Assembly (NCBI GenBank): GCA_965238225.1
Contig: OZ250183.1
Coordinates: 1,280,001-1,344,000, forward strand
Reading direction: 5' to 3'
Source: Gammaproteobacteria bacterium
GTDB taxonomy: Bacteria > Pseudomonadota > Gammaproteobacteria > Eutrophobiales > Eutrophobiaceae
Length of the DNA: 64,000 bases
Below, piece after piece: positions 8,360 through 55,988 of this stretch (within the stretch, counting starts at the first letter, position 1; the number at the start of each line of letters is the position of its first letter). The notes beneath the pieces were generated by a model, which saw only the letters and a list, made by a program, of their open reading frames with translations, was not told where the DNA came from and made no database searches. The translations under genes were made by a program, and so were the position numbers.

Positions 8360-9118
8360 TTATTGATTAAGGCGGCGCTGTCGCCAAGCTTCGTACAAAC
8401 ATATCCCTGCGGCAACAGAAACATTTAGACTCTCAACAACGCCAGCCATGGGTATATTCACCAGCTTGTCACAATATTTATGAGTATTTTGTCTAAGTCC
8501 GCGCGCCTCTGAACCCATAACCAAAGCAATGGGTAATGTTAAATCTTCTTCATAGATAGTATGTTGAGCGGAAACAGCAGTACCTATCACCCATATACCT
8601 GATTCCTGCATTGCCTTTAAAGCACGCGACAAATTAGCAACATGAATGACAGGAGTATTTTCTGCGCCACCACATGCAACTTTTCGCACTGTTTCATTGA
8701 GACCAACTGCACGATCTTTAGGAATGATAACAGCACGTGCACGCATCGCATCAGCGGTACGCAGACAAGCTCCTAAGTTATGCGGATCCTGTATACCATC
8801 AAGCACTAAAAAAAGTGTTGCTTCTTCACTATTCATTGCTAATACAGATTCTAAATCTATCCTGCTATCTATAGACACAAACCTACGTCTTATAACCACC
8901 CCTTGATGATTTGCCTGATGACTTAATTTATCTAGTGTTTTTTTTGTCATAAACTGAACGGTCACTTGCGCATTTTTCGCAAGCTCCAAAAGCTCTGACA
9001 TACCTTTGGATGGTTTTTTATTTTCCAACGCCCACATCTCCAACACATTGGCTGAAGTATTTTTTAGCGCATGTCGAACGGCATGTATGCCATAGGTAAT
9101 TTCTGATTGTTTACTCAC
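8360..9118 (-). CDS. rlmB: 23S rRNA (Gm2251) 2'-O-methyltransferase
   Basis: YGIHAV, NHQGV, LDGIQDPHNLGACLRTA, MGSEARG and ESLNVSVA. Probable GTG start at 9118. Confidence 0.95.
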   Translation of the reverse strand: MSKQSEITYGIHAVRHALKNTSANVLEMWALENKKPSKGMSELLELAKNAQVTVQFMTKKTLDKLSHQANHQGVVIRRRFVSIDSRIDLESVLAMNSEEATLFLVLDGIQDPHNLGACLRTADAMRARAVIIPKDRAVGLNETVRKVACGGAENTPVIHVANLSRALKAMQESGIWVIGTAVSAQHTIYEEDLTLPIALVMGSEARGLRQNTHKYCDKLVNIPMAGVVESLNVSVAAGICLYEAWRQRRLNQ

Positions 9119-9501
9119 TTCTGCATGAGTCCTCAAGATTATTAAAATTGCATTGCCCAGCATAACAACACATCTTCAAAAATACACATTTACCTTAATA
9201 TTTTCCATATTTATCTTTAATAAAAAATATTTCTGGATTTAGATTTTTTTATAAAAAAGTCATGTCGCCAAGATAAAAAAATAATACAAATTTAATAATT
9301 ATTTTTTATCTTATTTAGAATAGAATACAATAATTTATAATTTTTTTATTGCGTTTTCATATAATTTTATAACATCGATAATGAGAATGAATAAGATAAA
9401 TCTATTATCATGAATAATATAATAAAAAAATACTTAATTGATTAGGTTAATTATTATGACGTACCTCAATAATCTACAACTATATAAATAAAAAAATTAT
9501 T

Positions 9502-10741
9502 ATGACTAGAAAGATCGCCAGAAACGATAATATAATTACCGTAGAAAGTAATTTAGATGACTTTCACCAATTGCTTGCTAAGGTTTATGATGCTATTGAA
9601 AGACGTGATTATCAAGATCTCCTGTTGGATGTGAAAAATTGCGTATCTGCCTTTTAAAATTCCATGCTCTCATTATGCGCCAAAGTAATGGCATACCGAA
9701 AAGGCGGCATTAATTTTTCTTTAAAACCGCCTAAAGAAAAGAGATTAGCGAGTCTATTCCGCAATACGAATTGGGGATATTTTTTAGATCCACACCAATA
9801 TGATAAATCTGATTTTCGTGGTCACAGGAAAATTTCAGCTACTCAGTATCAAACACCAGAACAACAACAAAGTACAGTTAATAAAATTGTTAATGTAATA
9901 TTAGGCACTATTCCAGACATGCAGCGTGAAGATTTTTCTGCGTTCGAATGGTCTATTAATGAAATTACTGATAATGTTTTAGTGCATACTCAATCAAATA
10001 TCGGCGGACTTGTCCAAGCCTCAACTTTACAGAAAACCCAGAAACGGGTCGAATTTGTTGTTGCAGATGCAGGAGCAGGAATACCTCAAACACTTAAAAA
10101 CAGCCATCCGGAAATTAATTCTGATGCAGATGCATTAGACCAAGCTATTAGAGAGGGCGTCACAAGAGATAAATCACTCGGTCAAGGTAATGGTTTATAT
10201 GGCAGCTATACAATGATGTAGCAATTGCAACGGATATTTCAGTGTGGACTCTGGGCATGCTCATTTAAGATATGTAAAGAATAAAGATCTTTCTATATCT
10301 AATAAAAGTATTCCATACAGTGGCACATTAATTATTGCCACTATCGATTTCTCTCAGCCACATTTATTGGCAAATGCTCTTAAATTTAAAGGCAAAAAAC
10401 ATACGCCTACCGATTTTGTTGAGACAGCTTATGAAACAAATGAAGATAGATAGATAATTTTTAGTCTCTTGAAAGAATCCGGATCATTTGGCAGTCGAGT
10501 TGCAGGCAAGCCTATAAGGACAAAACTATATAATTTACTTCATATGCAACATCGAGATAAGATTTATATTGATTTATCTGACATACCAATTATGTCAAGC
10601 AGTTTCGCCGATGAGGTATTTGGCAAACTTTTTCTGGAAGCTGGTGCCATTGAATTTATGCAAAAATTTGAATTTGTTAATATGACAGAAACTGTTAAAC
10701 AAATAATTGATAAGGCAGTATCTCAGCGTATGTCGGGCTGA
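9502..10741 (+). pseudogene. HATPase-like + STAS-like (DUF4325) protein, disrupted
   Basis: One gene from the ATG at 9502 with an in-frame TAA (~9655), a frameshift (~10210) and an in-frame TAG (10451). Motifs EITDNVLVH, VADAGAGI, GQGNGLYG and C-terminal SSSFADEVFGKL. Confidence 0.85.
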
Positions 10742-15703: not shown

Positions 15704-17251
15704 TCAAATTTGCGGATGAGTACGCTTAGCCTGAGCCTGAGCCTGAGCCTGAGCCTTATTTAGCGCATTAATATAAGCCTTTGCAGAAGCAATAATAATA
15801 TCCGTATCTGCGCCTTGCCCATTGATGACCCGACCGTCTATATTAACTCTGACCGTAACCTCTCCTTGCGAATCTGTTCCAGTAGTAATATTGCTCACTG
15901 AGTAAAGTTCTAGGACACAATCGCTTTCTATCACTGACTCGATAGCCTTGAATGTTGCGTCGACTGGTCCACTGCCTTTCGAGTTAGCATGTTTTTCTTC
16001 GTCATCAACAGCCAGAATCACCTCGGCAACAGGGACTTCACCTGTTTCAGAATTCACCTTTAGGGAAACCAGTTTAATTCGTTCAATGTTGATTCCATGC
16101 AAGGTATCAATGACCAATGCCTGTAAATCTTCATCGAAAATTTCATGCTTTTTGTCTGCAAGATCTTTAAAGCGACTAAACGCTGCATTTAAATCTTCTT
16201 CGCGTTCAAACTCCGCACCCAAATCTGATAGTCGAGATTTAAATGCATTACGCCCTGAATGTTTTCCCAAAACCATTCTACTGGCATTCCAACCCACATC
16301 TTCAGCACGCATAATCTCGTAAGTCTCTCGGCTTTTGAGCACACCATCCTGATGAATTCCCGCTTCATGAACAAAGGCATTGGCGCCGACAATGGCCTTG
16401 TTCGGTTGCACGGGGAAGCCTGTCACACTTGAAATCAAACGTGAGCAAGTCATAATCTGCGTGGTATCCAAAGTCGTATCACAGGGGAATACGTCTTGAC
16501 GCGTACGTACCGTCATAACAACTTCCTCTAAAGATGCGTTGCCAGCACGTTCTCCCAAACCATTAACGGTACACTCGACCTGTCTGGCACCGTTCATAAC
16601 TGCCGCAAGCGAGTTACCGACTGCCAAACCTAAATCATTATGACAATGTACTGAGAAGACTGCTTTATCAGAATTCGGTATCCTTTCAACTAATTGTTTG
16701 ATCAGTTCGCCAAATTGCTGAGGCAAACTATAACCCACTGTATCCGGAATGTTTAGTGTCGTAGCGCCAGCATCAATCACAGCCTCCAATATGCGACACA
16801 AAAAATCCAGTTCTGAGCGGCCAGCATCTTCTGGTGAAAATTCAACATTGTCTGTGTAATTGCGTGCCCGTTTAACTGCATGCACAGCATGTTCTACAAC
16901 CTGATTAGGTGTCATATGCAATTTTTTTTCCATATGAATAGGTGATGTTGCAAGAAAGGTATGAATTCTTGAGGATCGCGCTGGTTTCAAAGCGGCAGCT
17001 GCCTTATCGATATCTTTATCCAGAGCGCGCGCAAGTCCGCAAACCGTGCTGTCTTGGATGACTTTGGCAACTTGATGTACAGCTTCGAAATCACCAAGGC
17101 TTGCTATTGGGAAGCCTGCTTCGATGATATCAACCTTCATGCGTTCTAATGCCTTGGCAATTCGAACTTTCTCTTCCTTGGTCATTGACGCACCAGGGCT
17201 TTGTTCTCCGTCGCGAAGAGTTGTATCAAATATTATTAATTTGTCTTGCAT
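15704..17251 (-). CDS. leuA: 2-isopropylmalate synthase
   Basis: [29 protein letters not shown] and the C-terminal regulatory domain GSGPVDA. Confidence 0.98.
15729..15755. repeat. (GCCTGA)4 hexamer repeat encoding the Ala-Gln run at the LeuA C-terminus
   Basis: Read directly as gcctga x4 plus gcc. Confidence 0.9.
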
Positions 17252-17367
17252 ATTCCTGCTCCAAAACCTACGTCCATATTACAGTATGAATGTGAAACCA
17301 TAAACTAAATTTGTCCTGTGTAATATCATTACACGAACATTAATGGATTTTTAAATTTTAAGGTAGT

Positions 17368-17457
17368 TTATCTTGCCCGACAGGGCAGCAGGCGCAGCGC
17401 AAAATAATGATGCAGCTTGATCATAGAGTCAGAGCGGTTTGGAATGAATACCTTCAT
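17368..17457 (-). promoter_or_regulatory. Candidate leuA leader peptide (29 aa)
   Basis: MKVFIPNRSDSMIKLHHYFALRLLPCRAR with clustered CTG codons in a GC-rich patch, just downstream of a TTGTAA-N16-TATATT promoter-like element (17496-17469). Confidence 0.35.
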
Positions 17458-17622
17458 TTACAGTACAAAATATAGCGATACTTTCAGGTATTACAAGTTC
17501 TTTATTCGTACGTTCAATCTACGAGTGTAGTGCTTAATGAGTTAGAATGAGCTAAATTATAATGCCCAATCAGAGTAAATGAACTCCAAACACTATCAAA
17601 GCTATCCCAGTTCACTCGGAAA

Positions 17623-19467
17623 TTAATTTACCCTGACAATTGCTTTTCTGTCTAAAAATGAATTAAAGAACTCACAGGCATTATCAGATATTAATGCACA
17701 GGAATAACAAGCGGCTAAGTTCATTTCTCCCACACCTTGTCCGTCAGAATGATAACAAATCGGATCAGAAGCGCAGTCCTTGGCTCTCTCTAAAGCATTC
17801 TTTAATAACTGCTCGAACTTTACAGGGGTAGCCTGCGAAGCCAATCCACCGTAACTGCCTTCCATGCCACCTACTGTATAAATTAAAACACCTTGCATTT
17901 CATTTTCATCTACAAACAATCGTTCTTGTAAAGATACTGTGGGATAACCGCAAGAAAATTCTAACTCTTTCATCAACAAATGAGATAAAGTGTGTACAAA
18001 AATAAATTTGGCTAAATGTTGTTCATTGTTAAATTTTCTTTTAAATAGCGAGCTGTCTTTGCTTTTGTTAAAAACATTTTTTATACGGTTTTTTTCTTTG
18101 GTGAAATATTGATTTATTTTACCTTGATTAAACGTGATGAAAATGCCTTCACCAAAATTCTCAATACCTAATAAATATTCAGTCTGATTGCCTTTAGTTG
18201 AAGTATATTTTGGCTTTATTGCATCAATTTCATTATCTAAAAATAAGTCAATATCTAAGGGTTGCTGTCTGGTATAGCCCGTTTGCACTGTGGTCATTTT
18301 TAATCGCGATATTTTCACCAAATGGCGAATGTCGCATTCTATCAAATCAGTTTCTTGATGCTTAAAAATAAAATCATCTTTTTTGTAGTCTCTATTTTCT
18401 AAGATAAATTGATATTCTTTTTGCCGATAAGCCAATTCTTTTTGAAAACCTTGATTATCTTTAGTATTTATATAATCTTGTATTTCAGATTTTTGATAAC
18501 GATCATCTAAAGCATCAAACATAAAATCAACTGTTTTATTTTTATCAAGCCATCTGTCTATTTTGGCTTGATCAGTATCAGCTATACTGCCAGCGCTGGG
18601 CAAATACAGACTATGCGTTAAGATAGAATAATAAACGCTATTACTAGAACGAATTACTATTTTATATCTATGCTTTTTTTCTGTATCGGAAAAATAACTT
18701 AAACTATATAAACCTGTCAGCGTTGCGCGTCCTTTACACTCCTTGCAATTAATGTTAATGCCTGCTAAATCCTCATAGTCACCCAGCTTATAATATAAAT
18801 CTTGCTTATCACAACATTTTTGCAACTTGCTAAAATCTATGGTTTTATCCTCTTCATGTTTGGCTTGTTGTTTAAAAGTGAGCCACTTATCCCAAGGCAC
18901 ATCAGAAATCTTGCCATCAGAACTAATCATAATGAATCGCACTTGAGTTAAGTTGTGATGATGCCATTTTCCTTTTTTCTTTATCTTGGCTTCTTCGTAA
19001 CAATATCCACATTTTGGTGGAATAAAGTTTTCCTTTGCTTTATTAGAGTTTTCAAAGTCATATTGCTTGATGACTTCGTCCCATTTCTGCCACCAATCTC
19101 CTAGTGGCTTGAAGTGCCGGCATTTACTACAAAACATCCATTTTGGAAAATATGAAGCAGTGGCAACATTTTCCTGGTCTGTGGGTTGGTGGGCGTATTG
19201 AGCCTTAGAAAAACTTTTCGTGGTGTTAGTTGGCACTTTTACTAAGGCTTTTAACTTAGGGAACCCTTTCTCATCTTTTAGGCGTTCTAACAAGCGATAA
19301 TCATTAATATGGCAGTCCGTTTCTTCCAAGTGTTTATCTCCTTCGAAAAATACCCACTTATCAATGGGTTCAATTTTTACCACACCTTTGACATCTTCTA
19401 CTAACGCACCCACACCTGCAAAAGCGCCTACCATTTTCCTGCTTTGGGTTTGTATAAATTTATTCAT
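17623..19467 (-). CDS. drmB: DrmB-like DUF1998 protein
   Basis: N-terminal GVGALV, FPKWMFCSKC, RSSNSVYY, HTLSHLLMKEL, GSYGGL and the DUF1998 Cys cluster CASDPIC...AACYSC...CE..N..LDR. Probable start at 19467, overlapping the drmA stop. Confidence 0.88.
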   Translation of the reverse strand: MNKFIQTQSRKMVGAFAGVGALVEDVKGVVKIEPIDKWVFFEGDKHLEETDCHINDYRLLERLKDEKGFPKLKALVKVPTNTTKSFSKAQYAHQPTDQENVATASYFPKWMFCSKCRHFKPLGDWWQKWDEVIKQYDFENSNKAKENFIPPKCGYCYEEAKIKKKGKWHHHNLTQVRFIMISSDGKISDVPWDKWLTFKQQAKHEEDKTIDFSKLQKCCDKQDLYYKLGDYEDLAGININCKECKGRATLTGLYSLSYFSDTEKKHRYKIVIRSSNSVYYSILTHSLYLPSAGSIADTDQAKIDRWLDKNKTVDFMFDALDDRYQKSEIQDYINTKDNQGFQKELAYRQKEYQFILENRDYKKDDFIFKHQETDLIECDIRHLVKISRLKMTTVQTGYTRQQPLDIDLFLDNEIDAIKPKYTSTKGNQTEYLLGIENFGEGIFITFNQGKINQYFTKEKNRIKNVFNKSKDSSLFKRKFNNEQHLAKFIFVHTLSHLLMKELEFSCGYPTVSLQERLFVDENEMQGVLIYTVGGMEGSYGGLASQATPVKFEQLLKNALERAKDCASDPICYHSDGQGVGEMNLAACYSCALISDNACEFFNSFLDRKAIVRVN

Positions 19468-22400
19468 AATCGTTAGTAAAGGTTTGTTGAATTCTAATAA
19501 AACTACTGCTATCAATATCTCGCATCGATTGTGCAACTACCCATTTTTTATCCTTTAAGGCTAATTTGGTGTCTGGCTTAGACAACAATGCATCCTCTTT
19601 GCCGTCATAGACCTTATAAGGATTATCTTTATTTATTTTTTGTGCCCAATCCTTACTTAACTCATCTAATCTATTAAAACAAAAGTCTAAATTTACACTT
19701 TCCCCAAAACGATTTTTTAGTAATTCTTTGAAATCACTAATACAGTCATTTGTAAAATTCTTCATATCACCATTTTTATTCAGTTTCTTCTTATGTCGAA
19801 CATAGGTAATCATCAAGCTAGCAATCATCTTGTCAATGGTATTCTCAGTAAACGGAGTGATACTAAGTGGTTCAATTTGCTTATACAGCGATTGGTGAAA
19901 CGATAAAAAATGTTCAAAATAAGACTTATCTCTAGCACGGTTAGAATCAAAAAAGGCAACAACCAAACCTTTGTCTTTTCTGCCTACTCTTGATGAAGCT
20001 TGAATGTATTCCGCCGTATTTCTTGGCATACCATTGATAAGCATCATATTGAGTCTATCTATATCAATACCGACCGAAAGCATATTAGTGGCTAATACTA
20101 AATCAACCGCCTCTCTTTTAACATTTTGATAACCTTTGTCATTAGGTTCGTTGAGTGCAAAATTTTGTTCCAACTGGTCTAAATTTTGTTTGATTTTTGC
20201 ACTGTCTATACGAGAGGTTAATTCTTTAGTTCTGCTTTTTAAACCAAAATAATTAAAACCATACTGGCTCAGTTGTAAGCGTTTTTGTGTTTGCTTAATA
20301 AGTGTTTGTATTTCATCACCGACTTTATTAGACATTCTGCCCACATCTCTTAAACTATTGTAATAAGAGACCAAAGTCCAATAAGGGTTAGTTTGTTCTT
20401 CATCGGTTTTATAAATTTTTAACCTAGCAATAAATAACACCGCTAATAAATGAATTTGGGTATCAACACCAGTTTTACCTGTGGGCATAAAACCTAAATA
20501 TTTACGATCGCTATCACCAGATTCTTTGAAGAAAAAACTATCATCATAAGTAAGCCCTGATGGTGGGAAAACATTAACTGAACGATTACCATATAATTGT
20601 TTAACCTGTTCGTTGGTATTGCGAGTGGTTGCCGTAGAGGCAATAATTTTAGGGCTAGAATCTCCTTTGATGCATAAATCCTCTATAACTGCTTCAAATA
20701 AACCAACAATTGAACCCAAGGGACCTGTTAATAAATGCAATTCATCTTGGATAATTAAATCAGGTGGCAAGTCGTTATCATCGCCCAAACTATTAAAAAA
20801 GCTATGTCCTTTTTCTTTCCAACTGAGCATTGCCATTTTATCAACGGTGGCAAATAACAAAGTAGGCGGATGATTATATAAAACCTCATCCACAACTTGC
20901 ACAGGTAAGCCGTTACCTTTAGAAAAACAACACGCATTATTTAGGCATTTGATTTTTAAATCTTTTCTTCTTGACTCAAATGCGTGTGTATGAGTTTTAC
21001 CATTTTCTTTTATTAGTTTTTCATTGCACCAAGGACAGGTGTCAATTTGAAATTTATTGGCACCAATGCCTGTTTTAGTTATTTGCTCTGTTGCTTTTTT
21101 CGCATCACTAATATTATTTGGCGTTGAAGATTGACCAATCCACAAACCAATATTGATTTTTTCGTCTTTTAAATCATCGCTAAACTGCTGGCGTAAATAT
21201 TCTAAAACGGTGATTAACTTAGTGGCTCGCTCAAATTGCTGTGCGGTGAGTAATCTCAAGGTATAACGCATAATGACTGACACGCCTTGATACTTTTCAT
21301 TAGTCATCCGCCGCCAAAGTATTGTAAATGCTGCTACTGCTAAATAGGCTTCAGTTTTACCGCCGCCAGTTGGAAACCAGATTAAATCAACGTCATCTTT
21401 ACGGTATCTTGATTGTGGATTGATGGTGCTTTCTAAACTTAACAAGAAAAATGCCAACTGGAAAGGGTGGTAAGTTATTTCTTTCTTTTGTGTTTCACTA
21501 CAAGGGCATTGGGTCTTTTCCGTGCTTTGTATGTCTTGATAAAAATCGCCCTTTAATGAAAATCGCAATAACAATGAAAATTGCAATAACATTGCCGTAT
21601 TAGCATATTGAAAGACTTTAAATAATTGCTGATTGTTTGCTAATAATTGCACCCCCTCTTTTAATCTCTTTAATGTTTCATCTAATTCATTGGTAATATT
21701 TTTACCTATCTCACTATTAGCACCATCATTTTGTTTTTGTTTTGTAATCCAATCACTATATTTGCTAATAAAGTCAGTAAGTTTATTAACAGCTTGGCTT
21801 TGATTGCCGCCCCAAATAGACAAATAATACAAAGGAATATTTTCTAGATCTAGAATATCTGTTTTAGTGCTTTTTAAATTATAGGTGGGTAAAAAAGTGG
21901 TGTTTATTTTAATGGGATTAGCTAAGGGATGCCATGCAGCACTGCAATTATGTCCTATGGCAAAGTGTTCAATATTTCTATATAAAAAATCCAGCGTTTG
22001 CTGTTCTTCATCAAAATAAACCTTATTTTTATCATAAGGTTTATAAGGTAGCAATTTATTAGAATTAATACTGATTTCTGCTTGAAATAAGCAAGATGTA
22101 TTTAACTCTTTTTTGCTATTAGAAAATTTATTGTTAGGAATACCATCAAACAAATTTACCAATTGAATTTTTATATATTTTTTATTATTCTCTGGGTAGA
22201 TTTTAAGCGTCCAGCCTGCCTTTTGAAAATCAGAAAATGGCATAGGTTCATTCTTGTTTTCTAATTTGATATTTTCAGTAATATTTATTGGTTTTCTTTG
22301 CCATAATCTGGCAATTAATTTGCTAAATTGCTCGTGTAGGGGGCGTAGGATTTCTTTATAATCATTGTCTGTATTCTTTTTCCAATCATCAAAGCATTTA

Positions 22401-22994
22401 TAATCTCCTGACCTTTCTTTTTTCATTCCACCAACTAATTCTTCTTTTAATGACAAAAAACCATTTTGTTCGTTAATTTTTTTGTAGTTCAAAATTTCCT
22501 TAAAAGGAAAGCCATATTTATCATCCATTAAAATATGATAGGCATTGGGTGCCATATCTATCTTAGCTACAGTTTGTTTTGGCTGTTTATAGGTTGCAAA
22601 GGAAAATTCAACAGTAATATTATCTATCACTTCATCAACGCAAAAACTAATACCCATATTGGATGGGTGGAAATGATTAGATAAACTTATCTCTTCTTTG
22701 CTATCATTTTCTATGTCTTTCTTTGGCGTCTTGTTCACCCTCTTGCTCTGCCACATTATCGTTTTGAACTTCAACAGATTCTAAATTATCTTCTGAATCA
22801 TCTGCCATTTCCGTGTCTTTCTCTCCCTGATCGTTCAATATTTTTTTAGGAAATAAGACCCCTGTGTAATATCTCTTTAATGGAAAATCAGCAATTATTT
22901 CTACCTCTTTCTCACCAGCAAATACATCGGAACCAGGACCTAATAATTGCTCTTCAATAGTCTCTTTAAATATCTTTATCTGTTCTTTTGCCAT
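19460..22994 (-). CDS. drmA: DrmA-like SF2 helicase, split by one frameshift near 22720 (track ORFs 22704-22994 and 19460-22774)
   Basis: The N-terminal piece has LLGP...P..RY.TGVLFP. The main piece has PSNMGISF, FAIGHNCS, FPTGGGKTEAY, MRYTLRLLTAQQFER, IIQDELHLL, ASTAT, LATNMLSVGID and YIQASSRVGR. Confidence 0.88.
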
Positions 22995-25282
22995 TATTCA
23001 GCCTGCCTATCTATATAATCTATCTCTTTAATCGTCCTAATCGGCATATTATGTTCTGAAATTGCTTCAATTGAAGCATCATCAAATTGACTTAATAACT
23101 GACCTTTTTCGTTGCTAATAATATAATCAGATACCTCATCGCTTAAATCTCTACCTAATGCGATCATAATGCTATTGTATTTTTTCCTGCTGATAAATAT
23201 TTTTTGATAATCGTTGCCACAAATATCCTGCAAACTGCCAAGATTTTGCGGGAACATGGTGTTTGAATTGCTATCCAACCACTTGCTAACGGTGTTTTCA
23301 GCAATGTTGCATTTATTGGCAATTTCTACTATTTTGTCATTATCCGTGCAATATTGGCTTAATATATCTTTCCATAACTTAGCATTGTCCAAAATTTCCT
23401 TGAATTTTCCTTGTTTATCAGCATCAACAGCAATGTCAAATAACACCTCTTTGTGCTGATTGTTATACACTCTAACTTTATCTCCTACACGCAAATCACC
23501 CACACTACACTTCTCTGGCTCATTGTGTTGGTTGATTAAAATAAGTGTACTGTTAGCCGACAATTCTACATCGCTGCCATCCTCAAAAATAACCTTTTTG
23601 CTTATATGGTCTTGATAAGAGTTTTGATACTCTTTGTCATCAGGTGGCTTGTTATCAAAAATTCTATATAGTAAATTATCAGCACTTTCGGGTGTAATAT
23701 CATCAGGATAATCTATGCCCGTTAATTGTTTTCTATCGCGTGATCGGTATTCTGCTATCAGATCATTATCATATCGTTTATCAAAATCCTGATACAGCTC
23801 ATACTCCAGATCATAAAGTAGCCAATTAATTGTATGGCGACTGTCTTTTATTGAGCGATAAAAATCATAATCCATCAAAGATAAAATAGTGATGCTTTTG
23901 GGCGATGGTAGTTTTTTTAATTGACTAAAAGAAATGATTTCTGTTTTCTGCCAATTAAATTTCTTAATTTCCATTTGCCAAACTGCTAAGGTTTGTCCTT
24001 TTGGCACCAACAAATAATCTGTTTCTGTTGCTTGTTGTAGTGTGTGTGTTTTGGCATTATTTTCAAAAGAAAATTGCTCTAAAATAACACCATAATCTAT
24101 TTCTAACTGCTGACAAAATTCTGTGCAACCCTTGCCAATATTGCTAAATTCTTCACCTAATACTCGCTTTGATTTTTCCTTGAAGCTATGCAATAAACCA
24201 TCCACTCCATTTTTTAAGCGGCTGTCTTTTGCTAATACGACTAACGGAAAAATATAAGAAATATAGGGTAATATTCTTGACTGTAAATCAATATAATTAT
24301 CTTGTTCTAATTGTTTAATATTGTTGATAAATTTTTCTCTTAGTTCGGTCAAAACCTTATTTTCTACTTTGATAGGTTCAATTGTACTCGACGGTACATC
24401 GCAAAGATATTGATATTCTGGCTCTGTCCATCTCCATTTTAATATTGGTTCAATGTCAGGCTTTTGCTCACCAATGCAAATAGCCTGTTTAAAATGTCCT
24501 CTATCAATATCTTGCTTGATTTGATGGTTATATTTATTACCAATAAAAACGATTGCTTCTAATTTAATATCTTTGTCAAAAATATATTGTTGTATTGTTT
24601 TATAATCTGAGACAACAAAAAACATAGAGTCTGCTAATTCAATATTTTTAGTTTCCACACCACTATCTGCAATATGTATGTATGGAAAGGCTTTTTCCTC
24701 CAAAGCTTCAAAGCTACCTTTAAACTCATTTTTTGAGCAACAAATGGCAAATTTATATGGAAAAGACCGTATTTGCTCTTTTATATTCAATGTTTCTTTT
24801 AGAAAATCGGACATTGGCTTGACCGGAGTTCTGTTATTATTTGCTGCCTCATCAGATAGTTTTGTATAATCTTTACCCAAGTCGCTTAAATTAGGTCTGC
24901 AAGTCACCTTTTCGCTTACACCCCTGCTTTTACCCTCTAAAATAACTATTTTACGTCCACGATTGTCACAATGCTTAACTTCTCGTACCTCAAATATTTT
25001 ATCCTTGTTGTTTTTGTATCTTTGTCCTTTCTTAGGATCATCTTTTTCGTCCTCACAATAATTATTTTCAAAAAAATGCACCGACGATGCAAAAATAACT
25101 GTTTGATAAAGTTTATTTAGCTTATTGTTATCGATATGAATCCAGAAGTTTTTGCTTTTATCTAATGCTTGTTTTGTCAGAGCAATATTAATTTTATCAA
25201 ATTTTGAAAAATTAAAGTCTCCATACTTTATTTCTTCATCTGATTTTTTTAAGATTTTTTGCAGATAGTTAATAATTTTCAT
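22994..25282 (-). CDS. DrmE-like protein (~760 aa)
   Basis: Lies directly upstream of drmA with an overlapping stop/start. The C-terminal VGDLRVGD...LWKDIL...TVSKWL...FP pattern resembles DrmE-family C-termini (recalled, not searched). No Walker motifs. Confidence 0.55.
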   Translation of the reverse strand: MKIINYLQKILKKSDEEIKYGDFNFSKFDKINIALTKQALDKSKNFWIHIDNNKLNKLYQTVIFASSVHFFENNYCEDEKDDPKKGQRYKNNKDKIFEVREVKHCDNRGRKIVILEGKSRGVSEKVTCRPNLSDLGKDYTKLSDEAANNNRTPVKPMSDFLKETLNIKEQIRSFPYKFAICCSKNEFKGSFEALEEKAFPYIHIADSGVETKNIELADSMFFVVSDYKTIQQYIFDKDIKLEAIVFIGNKYNHQIKQDIDRGHFKQAICIGEQKPDIEPILKWRWTEPEYQYLCDVPSSTIEPIKVENKVLTELREKFINNIKQLEQDNYIDLQSRILPYISYIFPLVVLAKDSRLKNGVDGLLHSFKEKSKRVLGEEFSNIGKGCTEFCQQLEIDYGVILEQFSFENNAKTHTLQQATETDYLLVPKGQTLAVWQMEIKKFNWQKTEIISFSQLKKLPSPKSITILSLMDYDFYRSIKDSRHTINWLLYDLEYELYQDFDKRYDNDLIAEYRSRDRKQLTGIDYPDDITPESADNLLYRIFDNKPPDDKEYQNSYQDHISKKVIFEDGSDVELSANSTLILINQHNEPEKCSVGDLRVGDKVRVYNNQHKEVLFDIAVDADKQGKFKEILDNAKLWKDILSQYCTDNDKIVEIANKCNIAENTVSKWLDSNSNTMFPQNLGSLQDICGNDYQKIFISRKKYNSIMIALGRDLSDEVSDYIISNEKGQLLSQFDDASIEAISEHNMPIRTIKEIDYIDRQAE

Positions 25283-25320
25283 TCGCGCATTAAAAAGAAA
25301 GCGTCGATCTATTTTAAAAA

Positions 25321-26070
25321 TCAACTTTTATTGTCTGAAGATTCTTGAAGCCTTCTCGCTTTTCGATGTTTGTGAATAAAAAACAAAGTCATAACTGGGC
25401 CTGAAATAGCATAGATTAAAGCGATAGAAAATAGTACCAGCGGCGGTTCGCTAGCAATAAACACAAATAATAATACAAGGATTAATATCCTGACAAAAGG
25501 AACACGACCCTTAAAATTTATTTCTTTGAAACTGTAAAAACCTATATTACTGACCATTAATATGCCAGCAAGCACTGTGATAGAAAATGCAATTATAGTC
25601 AGACTTTTAATCTCTACGAATTCTTGTGTTCCGCCAAGCCATATACTCCCCGCGATCATGGCGGCGGCGGCTGGACTTGGCAGCCCTTGAAAAAATCGCT
25701 TGTCGTAGCTAGCAGCTTGCGTATTAAAGCGAGCAAGTCGAAGTGCGGCCGATGCTGCATAAACAAATGCGGCAAGCCAACCCAGCTTGCCCATATCAGA
25801 TAAAACCCATTGATACATAATCAATGCAGGCGCTAAGCCAAACGAAACCATATCTGCTAAACTATCGTACTCAAGGCCGAAATCTGATTGAGTGTTTGTT
25901 AAACGAGCAATACGACCATCTAATCCATCCATAACCATGGCAACAAAAATAGCGATGGCGGCACTTTCAAATTGCGAATTCATGGCCGAAACAATGCTAT
26001 AGAAACCAGCAAACAAACCTGCTGTGGTAAGCAGATTTGGTAGTAGATAAATGCCGCGACGACGTTTCAA
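25321..26070 (-). CDS. pssA: CDP-diacylglycerol-serine O-phosphatidyltransferase
   Basis: LPNLLT, DGLDGRIAR...G.EYDSLADMVSFG, LRLARFN and FFQGLPSP. Confidence 0.96.
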   Translation of the reverse strand: MKRRRGIYLLPNLLTTAGLFAGFYSIVSAMNSQFESAAIAIFVAMVMDGLDGRIARLTNTQSDFGLEYDSLADMVSFGLAPALIMYQWVLSDMGKLGWLAAFVYAASAALRLARFNTQAASYDKRFFQGLPSPAAAAMIAGSIWLGGTQEFVEIKSLTIIAFSITVLAGILMVSNIGFYSFKEINFKGRVPFVRILILVLLFVFIASEPPLVLFSIALIYAISGPVMTLFFIHKHRKARRLQESSDNKS

Positions 26071-50186: not shown

Positions 50187-50972
50187 TTGATGGACATAGC
50201 ATTCATAATTATCGGTTTCTTAGTTGGTTTCGTCGTCGGTTTGACTGGCGTTGGTGGCGGCTCGCTCATGACCCCTATTTTAGTTCTGGGGTTTTCTATT
50301 CCTCCAGCTATAGCAGTTGGAACCGACTTGTTGTATGCCGCAATAACCAAATCTACAGGTATTTTTATTTATCATGCTAAAAATACTATTGACTGGAATG
50401 TTGTGAAACTTTTAAGTGCCGGAAGCATACCTTCGGCATGTTTATCTATTTTTGTGCTCAAAACCATGACTGCGTCAGGAATAGATTACAACCAAGTCAT
50501 CACTACCATTTTGAGTATCGCATTGATACTGACATCATTAGCGCTCCTGTTTAAAACTCAAATTCAAAAGCTTAGTCAAAATGAGCATATGTCTAGCCTC
50601 AAGGTTCTACACAAAGAATTCCAGAAACCATTAACTATTTTTTCTGGTGCTATGATTGGTTTTTTAGTCACGCTTTCCTCGGTTGGTGCTGGCGTATTAG
50701 GCGCTACAATATTATTTTTTCTTTACCCGCATATGCGTGCAATATCAATTGTTGGTACTGATCTGGCTCATGCTGTACCGATTACCGCTATTTCTGGCCT
50801 TGGTCATGCGTATCTAGGAGCGGTTGATTATATGCTTTTAGGAACCCTCCTGATTGGGTCTATCCCAGGCATATATCTGGGAGGCAATCTCGGCTCATAC
50901 TTACCCGAGCGCGTCATGCGACCTCTTTTGGCTGCTATGTTGCTTATGATTGGAATTTTTTTGCTATTGTAA
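50187..50972 (+). CDS. TauE/SafE sulfite exporter family protein
   Basis: GLTGVGGGSLMTP, AVGTDL and SSVGAG; multi-TM. Confidence 0.92.
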   Translation: MMDIAFIIIGFLVGFVVGLTGVGGGSLMTPILVLGFSIPPAIAVGTDLLYAAITKSTGIFIYHAKNTIDWNVVKLLSAGSIPSACLSIFVLKTMTASGIDYNQVITTILSIALILTSLALLFKTQIQKLSQNEHMSSLKVLHKEFQKPLTIFSGAMIGFLVTLSSVGAGVLGATILFFLYPHMRAISIVGTDLAHAVPITAISGLGHAYLGAVDYMLLGTLLIGSIPGIYLGGNLGSYLPERVMRPLLAAMLLMIGIFLLL

Positions 50973-51358
50973 TTAAATTACCAAAAAATTTAAGCAGTCT
51001 AATATTACTATAAGAGCAAGTGTTACTTAAGAGTAGGACTTAAGCAGCGTGATCCCTTCTATAGTTCTCAATAATTTTAAACATTTTGTCTTTCAAAAAA
51101 AATTTTTTCTTTTTCTTTTTTTCTAATTTCATATTCTCAATAGTAATCTCTCCAGTATTTTAACTGCCTATTTCTCGTTTTAAATTGGCATGTCCGATGA
51201 AAAACAAAACTGGTTATTACACGAACAAAATCACGCTAGAAATGTTACAAAAGCCTTCGCTGAACTTGAATGGGAATAAAATTAAAATTTAGAAACTTAA
51301 AACGGAATAAGCCCAAGCACAGAATAAAACTCAACAAGGAAGCGAACCCTTCATAAAC

Positions 51359-51697
51359 TTAATCTTCTATTTTCTTTTTTATATGAGGTATGGATGATGG
51401 ATCTCCTGCATTCATATAACGCTTTTCATCATCTATAGCCGTCATGTTTTCATAAACGCCATCATCTCTTTTTACAAGTTTTGTAAACCCGTGATTTTTT
51501 AACTCGGCATTACCCGTTGGAAATGCGAGCGCAGGCGCCCTGATAATTTTTCTTACAGATGCTAAAGGGTCTGTTTCGCCAAGAGGATGTTGTGTGACGT
51601 AACAAAGCTCCCCCCAGTTTTCGATATTATCCTTAATTGAATGTGTTGCCTCAATGGTTTTGCCATTTAGCCCACAAAAATAATCATAATTTGGCAA
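51359..51697 (-). CDS. FmdB-like zinc-ribbon family protein
   Basis: (M)PNYDYFC...E..H...WGELC and GFTKLVKRDDGVYEN. TTG start after GAGG. Confidence 0.72.
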   Translation of the reverse strand: MPNYDYFCGLNGKTIEATHSIKDNIENWGELCYVTQHPLGETDPLASVRKIIRAPALAFPTGNAELKNHGFTKLVKRDDGVYENMTAIDDEKRYMNAGDPSSIPHIKKKIED

Positions 51698-51820
51698 TAG
51701 ATTTTTCCTCAAATCATTATTAAAACAGGAAAGAAAATAACCATAAAAATAAGCATAGTCAAATTATGATAATTCTAACAGTAGCACTCGTTATCCGCCG
51801 AGATGGTTTGTTATATTTTA

Positions 51821-52123
51821 CTATGAAAGTCTTATTACCTTTTGGCGAAATAAGCCTTTTTCTTTTTTTCTAAGAATTTTTTTTGATATCTGTTTTATAT
51901 CTCCGCTTGTAGTAAGTCCTTGTGCATAACTTCTACAACCAAGGATGTTCTTATATTCATAAACAAAATAATCATCATTGTTATTAATTTCTTCATAATA
52001 TGAAGCTATTAATTTCTTAGGACGAAGAGATAAACTAAAACATATACTAACGATAAATAATATAATTTCTTCTTTGTTAAAATCAAAAGATGTTAAATAT
52101 ATTGTTATAAATTCTAGAGACAT
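51821..52123 (-). CDS. Hypothetical membrane protein, AT-rich
   Basis: AGGAG RBS, 100-aa ORF with one hydrophobic segment. Confidence 0.5.
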   Translation of the reverse strand: MSLEFITIYLTSFDFNKEEIILFIVSICFSLSLRPKKLIASYYEEINNNDDYFVYEYKNILGCRSYAQGLTTSGDIKQISKKILRKKEKGLFRQKVIRLS

Positions 52124-52147
52124 TACTGTATGCTCCTACTGTGTATC

Positions 52148-52620
52148 TCATAGGAACTTTCTGGATTTTAAAAATTCCTTCACCTGTTTTATGACACTAT
52201 CATTTTTCATAAGAAATGGGTGTGATACAGCTAAAGAAATGTGATCAGTCATGTCTGCCAGTTTAGTACGAACAACTGATACCTTTCCATCATCTGGGTT
52301 GGGCAGCATTAATGACAAGATAAAATTAATAGTTGATGTGCCGTCTATGATACCAATAGGGTAATTGACTGACTCCAGTGAGTTCGGAACGCTTGTTGCC
52401 TCGGTGCTAAGCTGCATACCCGCTGGACTATTTATCATTTTAAACCCATAGTATATTTCTCATTTTATCAACAACTTCACTGCTTTTATTCGGCGACCCC
52501 AGCATAACAACTCTATTTAAATTTTCTAAGTTATTATCCTCCAAATATTATTCTTAATACGATACCGCCTAATGAGTGCGTAACAAAATTTATTGGTGAC
52601 GTAGCCACACACCTAAAGCA
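52148..52620 (-). pseudogene. Alpha/beta hydrolase (lipase-like) pseudogene, 5'-truncated
   Basis: PINFVTHSLGGIV nucleophile elbow, RVVMLGSPN, DDGKVSV and SHPFLM across frameshifts. Confidence 0.82.
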
Positions 52621-52679
52621 TAATACGACACATGCACAAAGACGTGCGTTAGTAGTCGCTGCGGAATGTATCATTAAAA

Positions 52680-53815
52680 ATATTTCTTATTCTTTGGGCG
52701 ATATTTTTATATTCATCAATAAATTTTCTTTCTGCAATGTGCGCATTGTCATCCATACAATTCATTGAGCATGCTAATCCTTTATTTTCATTCAGGTCTT
52801 TTGAGAAGGTGCTGATTGACTTCATGTCAAATGCACGTATATGATTTTCTAAAGTTTTTAGGTAATCATATGCCTCAATACCTCCTTCCCGGTCTTAACA
52901 TTCCAGCACCCTGTTTTTTGTCGTATATTTGACATTTCGTCCTTAATACTGATGAATCTTTCCATATCTTCCAAACCAAATGTGCGCTGATATATATACG
53001 GGTTTAATCGCTCTAGCAGATCAGCTCCTAATTATGATGAGCCAGCCATAAATCTAGCGCGTAGCCATGCGAACCTCTCCCACGCTTCAGTGCTTGCTTC
53101 ATAGTAATGTTCAGTATCATCTATTGGCATCACCAAAGGTGCATTTCTTCCCCATGGTCGAAGGTTAAAATCAACGCGATAAAGAAATCCTGTTGGTTTT
53201 ATTTCTTCAAGATAACGAGTAAAATTGCGAATGCATTGCACGAGTGCAGAATGATATTTATCTGTATCGCCTTCAATATCTTCGCTGCTGACACAGACAA
53301 AAATAAGATCAACATCGGAACTATAATTTAATTCCTGCGCGCCTAATTTACCCATTGCAAACAAGGCAAGAGGCACTTCCTTGTCTGCTTGTTTTAAATC
53401 TTCGCATGCGCTTGCAAGCTCTAATGTTTTATTTAATATCGCGTCAGCTAATTTACTTAGCGCCAATAATATCTGTTCATATGGTTCTTGATTACTTATA
53501 TCCAAAGATGTGATTCGTAAAAGCTCACGATATTTTAATAGCCTTAAGCCTTCTATATCTGATATTTTTTTAATGTGGAGAAAGTTTCACTTTTCTTCGT
53601 TCCAATTAAGTAAATTGCTTCTGGCTTACGGCAAATATAATGAAAAAGAAAATTTGATACTGTAATGATATGAATGAAAAGCCGAGTAAATTTAACAGGT
53701 TTTTCAGATAAAAAATCACGTACAATAGCTTCTTGTCAAGGAGGTGCTCTAGTCTTAAATTTGCAAGCTCAGGGTTGGGCGATTGACCTAACAGATGTTT
53801 GTATTTAGAAATCAC
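52680..53815 (-). pseudogene. glnE: Glutamine synthetase adenylyltransferase-like pseudogene
   Basis: MGKLGAQELNYSSDVDLIF, YRVDFNLRPWG, WERFAWLRAR and downstream WNVKTG, in fragmented frames. Confidence 0.82.
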
Positions 53816-53898
53816 AAAATAAGAACTAATCTCTACAATTATCTTGTAAAATGTCTTTGTCTGGCTGTAGCAAGAATTATCTTGTAAAATTCACTCCA

Positions 53899-55827
<1,929 letters not shown>

Positions 55828-55844
55828 TCAGATGGGGAAATGTC

Positions 55845-55918
55845 TGCTTCCCTACGCCAGTACTAACCGGTTCAGGTTCAAGAGTTAATCTCAGCCATTA
55901 TGAGGCACCTCTAGCTAC
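55845..55918 (-). ncRNA. TPP riboswitch
   Basis: Minus strand reads GAGGTGC...GCTGAGA...GAACCTGAACCGGTTAGTACTGGCGTAGGGAAG, directly upstream of thiC. Confidence 0.93.
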
Positions 55919-55988
55919 ACTGCTCATATCTTTGCTGTATAATACCCCAGATGAGCCAATTGAAACCTACTTATTTGAGAATATTTTG

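Follow-up and report, generated by a model that had tools for sequence, protein, structure and literature searches.

The closest described relative of the locus reported here is class 2 DISARM, which consists of drmE-drmA-drmB-drmC-drmMII in Bacillus paralicheniformis (Ofir et al. 2018, as summarized in the papers that cite it). Protection by this system is reported to be abolished by deletion of drmA, drmB or drmE, and drmC to be dispensable; loss of the methylase gene drmMII is reported to be deleterious, and in class 1 DISARM loss of the methylases is reported to occur without autoimmunity (10.1101/2021.12.28.474362). DrmA and DrmB are described as an ATP-dependent complex with a trigger loop for autoinhibition and with affinity for 5′-overhang single-stranded DNA, and DrmC is said not to copurify with DrmAB and to be often missing from the operons (PMC9142583). 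Here we describe a three-gene locus, referred to as the trio, that occupies positions 17623 to 25282 on the minus strand of a 64-kb stretch of gammaproteobacterial contig OZ250183.1. The whole stretch is called the window, and coordinates are positions in it unless a related locus is named. We consider it probable that the trio is a horizontally acquired and self-contained DrmE-like/DrmA/DrmB module whose lineage, distinct from class 2 DISARM but akin to it, has neither a dedicated methyltransferase nor DrmC, and that the copy in the window is itself inactive. The parts of this interpretation that the data show directly are the gene identities, the architecture, its recurrence in other genomes and the foreign base composition.

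The first gene of the trio (22994–25282) encodes a 762-aa protein. A TTG codon would extend its open reading frame (ORF) to 25324; since 13 homologs have their N-termini at the position equivalent to the ATG at 25282, this ATG is the likely start. The second gene, drmA, spans 19460–22994 and is read in two ORFs, a 96-aa frame (22704–22994) that contains the conserved N-terminal segment and an acidic linker, and a 1104-aa ORF (19460–22774) in which homology begins near 22735. The third gene, drmB (17623–19467), encodes a 614-aa DUF1998/MZB zinc-binding protein. Reading of the sequence established that the stop codon of the first gene and the ATG of drmA overlap by 1 nt (TAATG), and that the drmB ATG lies within the end of drmA with an 8-nt overlap (ATGAATAA). 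The preliminary description had pictured three translationally coupled minus-strand genes filling the space between pssA and leuA, beginning about 40 bp from pssA and followed by no further sizeable gene before leuA. This picture held in every respect. Its outer coordinates were exact, the junction between the pssA stop codon and the start of the first gene (25283–25320) measured 38 bp, and the 371-bp spacer between drmB and leuA (17252–17622) contained no ORF of at least 60 aa. Moreover, we found no Rfam family, no terminator-like site and no DNA match to any related locus within this spacer.

The second and third genes were identified readily as DISARM components. The main drmA frame matched the PADLOC DrmA model (PDLC02575) with an E value of 3e-195, and its translation contains the GGGKT and DELH helicase motifs. 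Its best NCBIfam model was DISARM_DrmAS at 834.5 bits, which is under the equivalog cutoff of 950. An intact ortholog, that of related locus L001, to which the 1104-aa frame is 85% identical, likewise fell below this cutoff (854 bits), and this accounts for the NCBI name "helicase-related protein" carried by such genes. The 96-aa frame was 81% identical to residues 1–94 of the same ortholog and matched the PADLOC DrmA model with an E value of 7.7e-4. The DrmA ortholog also matched the solved DrmA of Serratia (7s9v_A) with a sequence E value of 6e-132; in Foldseek comparisons of the ortholog model, the solved DrmA was the top fold match over the whole length (E 8e-41, TM 0.57, 25% identity), exceeding all others by 36 orders of magnitude, with MrfA only a weak match (E 6e-4). 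Thus the position of class 2 DrmA is occupied by a gene for a YprA-family SF2 helicase that falls in the DISARM branch, although this gene is frameshifted in the window. The drmB gene is intact and full length, and follows drmA directly as a separate DUF1998/MZB gene, as in class 2. DrmB exceeded the cutoff of NCBIfam NF038324 DrmB_fam (288.7 bits versus 240), matched the PADLOC model with an E value of 2e-58 and contained the Pfam MZB/DUF1998 domain, and its cysteines were invariant across a 15-sequence alignment.

The first gene, which is intact and full length in the window, required less direct evidence, as its 762-aa product had no PADLOC match and no NCBIfam match. We identified 13 full-length homologs with 51–68% identity, and a profile built from this family retrieved 172 cluster representatives among 1.84 billion, 74 of them at an E value of 1e-30 or lower. 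When 60 full-length representatives were scanned, 24 matched Pfam DrmE_C and 14 reached its gathering score. Among 14 proteins comprising the window's own and 13 relatives, the NCBIfam DrmE_fam model matched seven, with four over the cutoff across nearly the whole profile. DrmE families also made up 23 of the 30 nearest clusters in the ESM Atlas. In addition, hhalign aligned the family with the protein in the DrmE position of a Lactiplantibacillus locus that includes a C5 methylase (probability 92.7%, 628 columns, colinear). From this remote and transitive homology we identify the 762-aa protein as a divergent DrmE encoded upstream of drmA, as the preliminary description had proposed in one of its readings.

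Neither a Walker A nor a DExx motif was present among the invariant columns of a 33-sequence alignment of the DrmE-like family, in which we found no conserved ATPase or nuclease motif, and a profile search of PDB sequences returned nothing (best E 0.26). An AlphaFold2 model of the protein resembled the SF2 helicase cores of RIG-I, MDA5, Dicer, Chd1 and Hef with E values of 1e-6 to 1e-4, but with TM scores of just 0.12–0.20, and an SF2-like fold is therefore only a lead. The idea that DrmE is an inactivated homolog of the SNF2 helicase DrmD was rejected, given an hhalign probability of 0.4% against a DrmD-like protein, the low TM scores and the absence of Walker A and DExx motifs. When DrmB (614 aa) was modeled together with residues 556–762 of the DrmE-like protein, which form its C-terminal domain, the predicted complex scored 0.00 against a mark of 0.32, a result that counts neither for nor against an interaction.

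The trio resembles class 2 DISARM in having DrmA and a separate DrmB, in beginning with a gene of the DrmE family, and in its E-A-B order with tightly coupled genes. In contrast to class 2, neither a C5 methyltransferase nor a PLD nuclease is encoded in the window or beside the relatives of the trio, its DrmE-like protein is too divergent for the PADLOC DrmE models, and its DrmA proteins form a separate clade. A drmMII-drmE-drmA-drmB locus on plasmid pMK02 of Lactiplantibacillus plantarum (NZ_CP012655.1) also lacks drmC and encodes an 801-aa protein in the DrmE position that is colinear with the window family, with its DrmA and DrmB annotated just as "helicase-related" and "DUF1998". However, this locus contains an adjacent C5 cytosine methylase (PF00145, 195 bits) and its DrmA falls outside the trio clade. 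Class 1 DISARM of Serratia sp. SCBI (drmD-drmMI-drmA-drmB-drmC, with drmMII; 7S9V and 7S9W) shares the DrmA fold and the split between DrmA and DrmB, and drmC is dispensable there as well. Unlike class 1, the window encodes neither a DrmD SNF2 helicase nor a DrmMI N6-adenine methylase, and DrmA of the trio lineage is about 150 residues shorter than the class 1 Serratia protein (1168 versus 1325 aa). The missing part may be the N-terminal EVE-like domain that the Bell et al. 2025 preprint assigns to class 1.

A central feature of our interpretation is that the bare three-gene layout is a property of the lineage rather than of one genome. The preliminary description had reported no methyltransferase and no drmC at the locus, and our scan bore this out: NCBIfam, with the unnamed ORFs scanned again with Pfam, revealed no DNA methyltransferase and no PLD domain in the 47 window ORFs of at least 120 aa, the only methyltransferases being those for rRNA, tRNA and protein. 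The same description had allowed that the locus might be a truncated relic, a reading that would have gained if close homologs always carried drmC and a methyltransferase. We examined 18 related loci with a relative of the first gene (L001–L018), obtained from one scan of species-representative genomes, and surveyed their flanking ORFs of at least 90 aa with Pfam, reaching as far as 10 kb on the upstream side and 4.8 kb on the downstream side. All 18 contained the DrmE-like gene, followed by drmA in 17 and then by drmB in 16; both exceptions are truncated loci, L002 being interrupted by a transposase gene and the end of its contig and L016 by a contig end. None of the 162 flanking ORFs encoded a C5 methylase (PF00145), and each of the two N6 methylases was part of a restriction-modification (R-M) system of its own, type III in L004 and type I in L013. 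The only PLD domain was fused to a SNF2 helicase (L002), and no stand-alone PLD gene was found in these flanks. As a positive control, the C5 methylase beside the Lactiplantibacillus plasmid drmE-drmA-drmB genes (L022) was detected by the same Pfam search. The hosts were Gammaproteobacteria, Bacteroidota, Calditrichota, Cloacimonadota, one deltaproteobacterium and a Nitrosopumilus metagenome-assembled genome (MAG). Because the layout was common to related loci with enough flank across several phyla, the missing genes were not lost in this genome, and at the level of the family the trio is a variant rather than a deletion relic.

Phylogenetic analysis gave a consistent result. The DrmA tree had 21 rows, and the 17 proteins linked to this type of DrmE grouped in it as one clade (SH-aLRT 100). 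Outside this clade, on long branches, were the DrmA of the methylase-linked Lactiplantibacillus locus and a Bacillus DrmA resembling class 1. L002, L010, L016 and L017, in which DrmA was fragmentary or absent, were omitted from this tree, and for the window only the 1104-aa part was included. The closest relatives of the trio were found in Candidatus Spongiihabitans MAGs, other gammaproteobacterial MAGs and a contig from the Nitrosopumilus MAG, the binning of which is uncertain.

Although the architecture is shared, the copy in the window is damaged. tblastn with five intact orthologs revealed a single frame change in drmA at about 22719–22735, after about codon 92: matches in the first frame stopped at 22719–22770 and matches in the second frame started at 22720–22735. 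The change coincides with an A-rich run within an acidic stretch, and the equivalent residues of an ortholog AlphaFold model (56–109) have pLDDT values of 24–36, predicting disorder. The frameshift cuts the conserved N-terminal segment, which is retained in 17 of the 18 related loci, off from the remainder of DrmA; in the 2025 preprint, an N-terminal strand is described as inserted into RecA2 in all YprA helicases. With this one lesion in drmA, the window copy of the module is probably inactive or was only recently inactivated. Other copies are also broken: drmA is split in L010 (10269–13969) and L017 (999–4644), and the DrmE-like gene of L014 (9965–11752) lacks its first ~190 positions. With the window and three of the 18 related loci affected, broken copies of the module are not rare.

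These lesions bear on the possibility that the trio is a decaying remnant of a complete class 2 system that has lost drmC and drmMII, is now losing drmA and has no function in a reduced genome. The frameshift, the broken copies in L010, L014 and L017, the size of the contig (1.72 Mb) and the state of glnE are all compatible with such decay. The glnE gene (50972–53899, minus strand) is a decayed pseudogene in which 2.9 kb is divided among at least eight short frames, with only a 157-aa piece matching the family, and this indicates ongoing genome reduction. Since glnE is shattered and the contig is small, real decay of drmA is plausible, although a sequencing error may instead be the source of its frameshift. 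On the other hand, every related locus with enough flank lacked the methylase and drmC, both the DrmE-like gene and drmB remain intact and full length, and drmA, otherwise 85% identical to its intact ortholog, shows just one lesion. The shared layout and the single lesion indicate that any decay is recent and confined to this copy rather than responsible for the architecture, and we consider it unlikely that the trio is a relic.

The absence of a linked methylase raised another possibility, that the trio is only the restriction half of a trans-methylated DISARM whose methylase is encoded elsewhere, either as an orphan or by a neighboring R-M system. The reported harm of drmMII loss in class 2 (10.1101/2021.12.28.474362) would be explained by this arrangement, and R-M genes occurred within 10 kb of the trio in four loci: a type III system in L004, type I M and S genes in L013, HsdR in L009 and, immediately upstream of the trio, type I M, S and R genes in L020. 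However, 12 loci had at least 2.5 kb of flank on both sides, and in eight of these (L001, L003, L005, L006, L008, L010, L011 and L014) the scanned flanks contained no R-M, defense or toxin-antitoxin gene. L018 also had no R-M gene, though a Schlafen/AlbA_2 gene follows its trio, and no DNA methylase is present in the 64-kb window. Furthermore, the R-M systems found nearby encode restriction subunits themselves and differ in type from locus to locus. We therefore regard dependence on a methylase provided in trans as rather doubtful, though somewhat less so than derivation by decay.

The family to which DrmA belongs suggested a third possibility, that the trio is a housekeeping DNA-repair helicase module resembling MrfAB/YprA, which would explain its retention in the biosynthetic operons of small genomes. 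The YprA family is reported to include the repair helicases MrfA and SftH (Bell et al. 2025), MrfA was among the weaker Foldseek matches, and the trio has housekeeping contexts in the window, L001, L003 and L005. Against this, DrmA and DrmB fit DISARM-specific models far better than any other and the solved DrmA was the top fold match. Helicase and DUF1998 are encoded by separate genes, a split that, according to the 2025 preprint, is consistently seen in the DISARM branch alone, and no gene for a MrfB-like 3′–5′ exonuclease is present adjacent to them. The distribution is also patchy, the GC content is foreign, copies are carried on plasmids and on conjugative or mobilizable elements, and some have defense genes as neighbors. 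Taken together, these observations make a repair role highly improbable.

Other systems built on a YprA-family helicase with a DUF1998 module as the core, namely ARMADA, Druantia and Dpd, are described in the same preprint. Their helicases are reported to be usually single polypeptides accompanied by BrxHII-like and PglX-like genes, fused nucleases or deazaguanine genes. None of these partner genes was found in the window, which thus contains neither type I nor type II ARMADA, and the DpdJ model scored just 46.7 bits there against a cutoff of 800.

Base composition and comparative data were informative about the origin of the trio. The GC content of the trio genes was 0.32–0.35 compared with 0.41–0.45 for the flanks and 0.376 for the window; individual values were 0.321 for the DrmE-like gene, 0.413 for pssA and 0.445 for leuA. 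In L005, a 1.62-Mb gammaproteobacterial MAG, pssA and leuA overlap directly (L005 1–1448), and their products are 54% and 75% identical to those of the window. As these genes directly adjoin there, L005 provides an empty site for the window's island. The trio of L005 itself lies between panB and panC in the same orientation with an 11-bp upstream gap (L005 9204–18284). Judged from composition and the empty site, the trio of the window is best read as a horizontally acquired island of about 7.7 kb. We found no convincing direct or inverted repeats at its ends.

The surroundings of the related copies varied considerably. Housekeeping genes flank the trio in L001 and L003 (rsmI, lpoA and others, then a thiamine pyrophosphate (TPP) enzyme), L005, L006 (moaA) and L010 (a glycosyltransferase and valS). 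Other neighbors were an integrase (L008), Fic/SocA together with HsdR (L009), a TIR-STING effector and IS21 (L012), a type IV coupling protein (L014) and a relaxase with the Schlafen-like gene (L018), and some copies adjoin toxin-antitoxin genes. Among 108 plasmid records with DrmA-like matches, six were inspected, and two more copies were found on plasmids, pHALHY02 of Haliscomenobacter hydrossis, which carries the trio alone, and that of Hymenobacter sp. DG25B, in which the trio directly follows a type I R-M system.

Several of these neighborhoods merit individual description. On the Haliscomenobacter plasmid (L019; NC_015512.1 111513–115818), the trio is followed by opposite-strand genes for a hypothetical protein, an AAA_15/AAA_21 ATPase and a dGTP triphosphohydrolase, which are possibly further defense genes. 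In L012, a Mariniphaga MAG, the TIR-STING (CBASS-type) effector gene (8779–9717) is located 268 bp upstream of the trio, and this adjacency places the copy in a defense island. In L004, a 156-aa fragment that matches the first 70 positions of the RhuM profile (9504–9974) lies 5 bp before the trio and a full-length RhuM gene (17698–18717) lies 119 bp after it, so that a rhuM gene appears to have been the insertion site of the cassette or adjacent to it. Immediately upstream is the type III R-M system, which is complete. L002 (1–13242), labelled Nitrosopumilus, contains the DrmE-like gene followed by a drmA that breaks off at about 120 aa beside a Mutator-family transposase. Upstream are two genes that resemble a Gabija pair (AAA_15/TOPRIM and UvrD) and a gene for a 1085-aa PLD-SNF2 fusion, whose resemblance to DrmD scored 166 bits and so fell below the cutoff. 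Its label may reflect cross-domain transfer or a binning error.

In the window, all genes between 14 and 30.5 kb are on the minus strand, and the order of transcription is ilvI, ilvH, ilvC, a psd-like gene, pssA, the DrmE-like gene, drmA, drmB, the spacer and leuA. The upstream flank is pssA (25321–26070; NCBIfam TIGR00473) and the downstream flank is leuA (15704–17251; NCBIfam NF002087, 886.7 bits). The 38-bp junction has no obvious room for a promoter. Promoter-like hexamer pairs occur at 25339–25311 and 25496–25467, in the 3′ end (last 200 bp) of pssA; the promoter scan performed at chance level, with 39 sites compared with 41 expected. No terminator-like site was present in either junction of the trio. 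Cotranscription with ilv-psd-pssA, which the preliminary description had suggested, is possible. The upstream gap was similarly short in L004, L005, L008 and L014 (5–29 bp) and measured 154–720 bp in nine other loci. The trio junctions also contained no RNA element, the sole Rfam match in the window being a TPP riboswitch (RF00059, 59 bits; 55832–55922, minus strand) directly upstream of thiC (53899–55788). As for the host, the ProS protein of the window was at most 84–85% identical to anything else, with uncultured Gammaproteobacteria as the named matches.

Several observations weigh against our interpretation of the trio as a self-contained module of a distinct lineage. Because the search patterns came from the first gene, the survey of related loci describes only this clade, within the flanks given above. 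R-M genes lie near the trio in the four loci already named, and a type I R fragment is present in L002. The frameshift in the window, the split drmA genes of L010 and L017 and the decay of glnE are signs of erosion. With respect to the first gene, the 762-aa protein scored 21.9 bits with DrmE_C, which is under the gathering score of 27, the PADLOC DrmE models matched none of the 14 family members, and the structure models are of moderate confidence (pLDDT of 73 for the DrmE-like protein and 64 for the DrmA ortholog). Finally, the defense activity of this lineage is one that we infer, and because loss of the class 2 methylase is deleterious, a trio without one would be expected to be autotoxic unless it is mechanistically different or trans-methylated.

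The novelty of the trio also required some qualification. The preliminary description had called it the best candidate in the window for an undescribed system. Our literature search found no printed description of a DISARM without a methylase. However, the existence of "many uncharacterized DISARM-like classes" is noted by Bell et al. 2025, and a table in this preprint files the Haliscomenobacter and Hymenobacter helicases of the trio clade as "DISARM-like helicase". The name DrmE appeared in neither the main text nor the four supplement files of the preprint that were available to us. As its helicases were already catalogued, the system is uncharacterized rather than unseen.

Our model for the lineage follows from the known DISARM proteins. 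By homology to the solved DrmAB, the SF2/YprA helicase DrmA and DrmB, with its OB-CON-DUF1998 "canopy", would form an ATP-driven complex that loads on single-stranded or 5′-overhang DNA of the invader and then translocates. The DrmE-like protein, in which no catalytic motif is recognizable, would act as an obligatory accessory subunit; its association with the complex is one that we infer. Self DNA could be spared through recognition of DNA structure combined with autoinhibition, for example by the acidic disordered loop that follows the DrmA N-terminus, or through an unlinked methylase. Thus the trio would constitute the restriction core of a class 2-like system that either discriminates self from non-self by DNA structure or relies on a methylase encoded elsewhere. 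A bolder version of this model is that the trio is a self-sufficient, methylation-independent DISARM that distinguishes foreign from self DNA purely by structure, such as free 5′ single-stranded ends, is gated by the acidic loop of DrmA and has no dedicated nuclease, with DrmE as a noncatalytic scaffold of SF2-helicase-like fold, and that it travels as a promoter-poor cassette that enters host operons and moves between sponge-associated bacteria and archaea. We offer this version tentatively; it is a possibility that we would not expect to hold in full, although we rate it slightly above reliance on a methylase provided in trans.

Intact copies of the trio are present in the cultured and nonpathogenic strains Haliscomenobacter hydrossis DSM 1100 (on the plasmid), Sinomicrobium sp. 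N-1-3-6 and Marinifilum sp. RC60d5. As the NCBI names of the trio genes are generic (hypothetical, helicase-related and DUF1998) and the PADLOC DrmE models miss the first gene, censuses of defense systems probably undercount this lineage. Class 2 DISARM is reportedly harmful without its methylase, yet this conserved lineage retains just the three genes that are essential for restriction (drmE, drmA and drmB) while the methylase and the candidate nuclease are both absent. This combination raises the questions of how self DNA is spared and what kills the phage, and it makes the lineage a minimal system for working out the role of DrmE.

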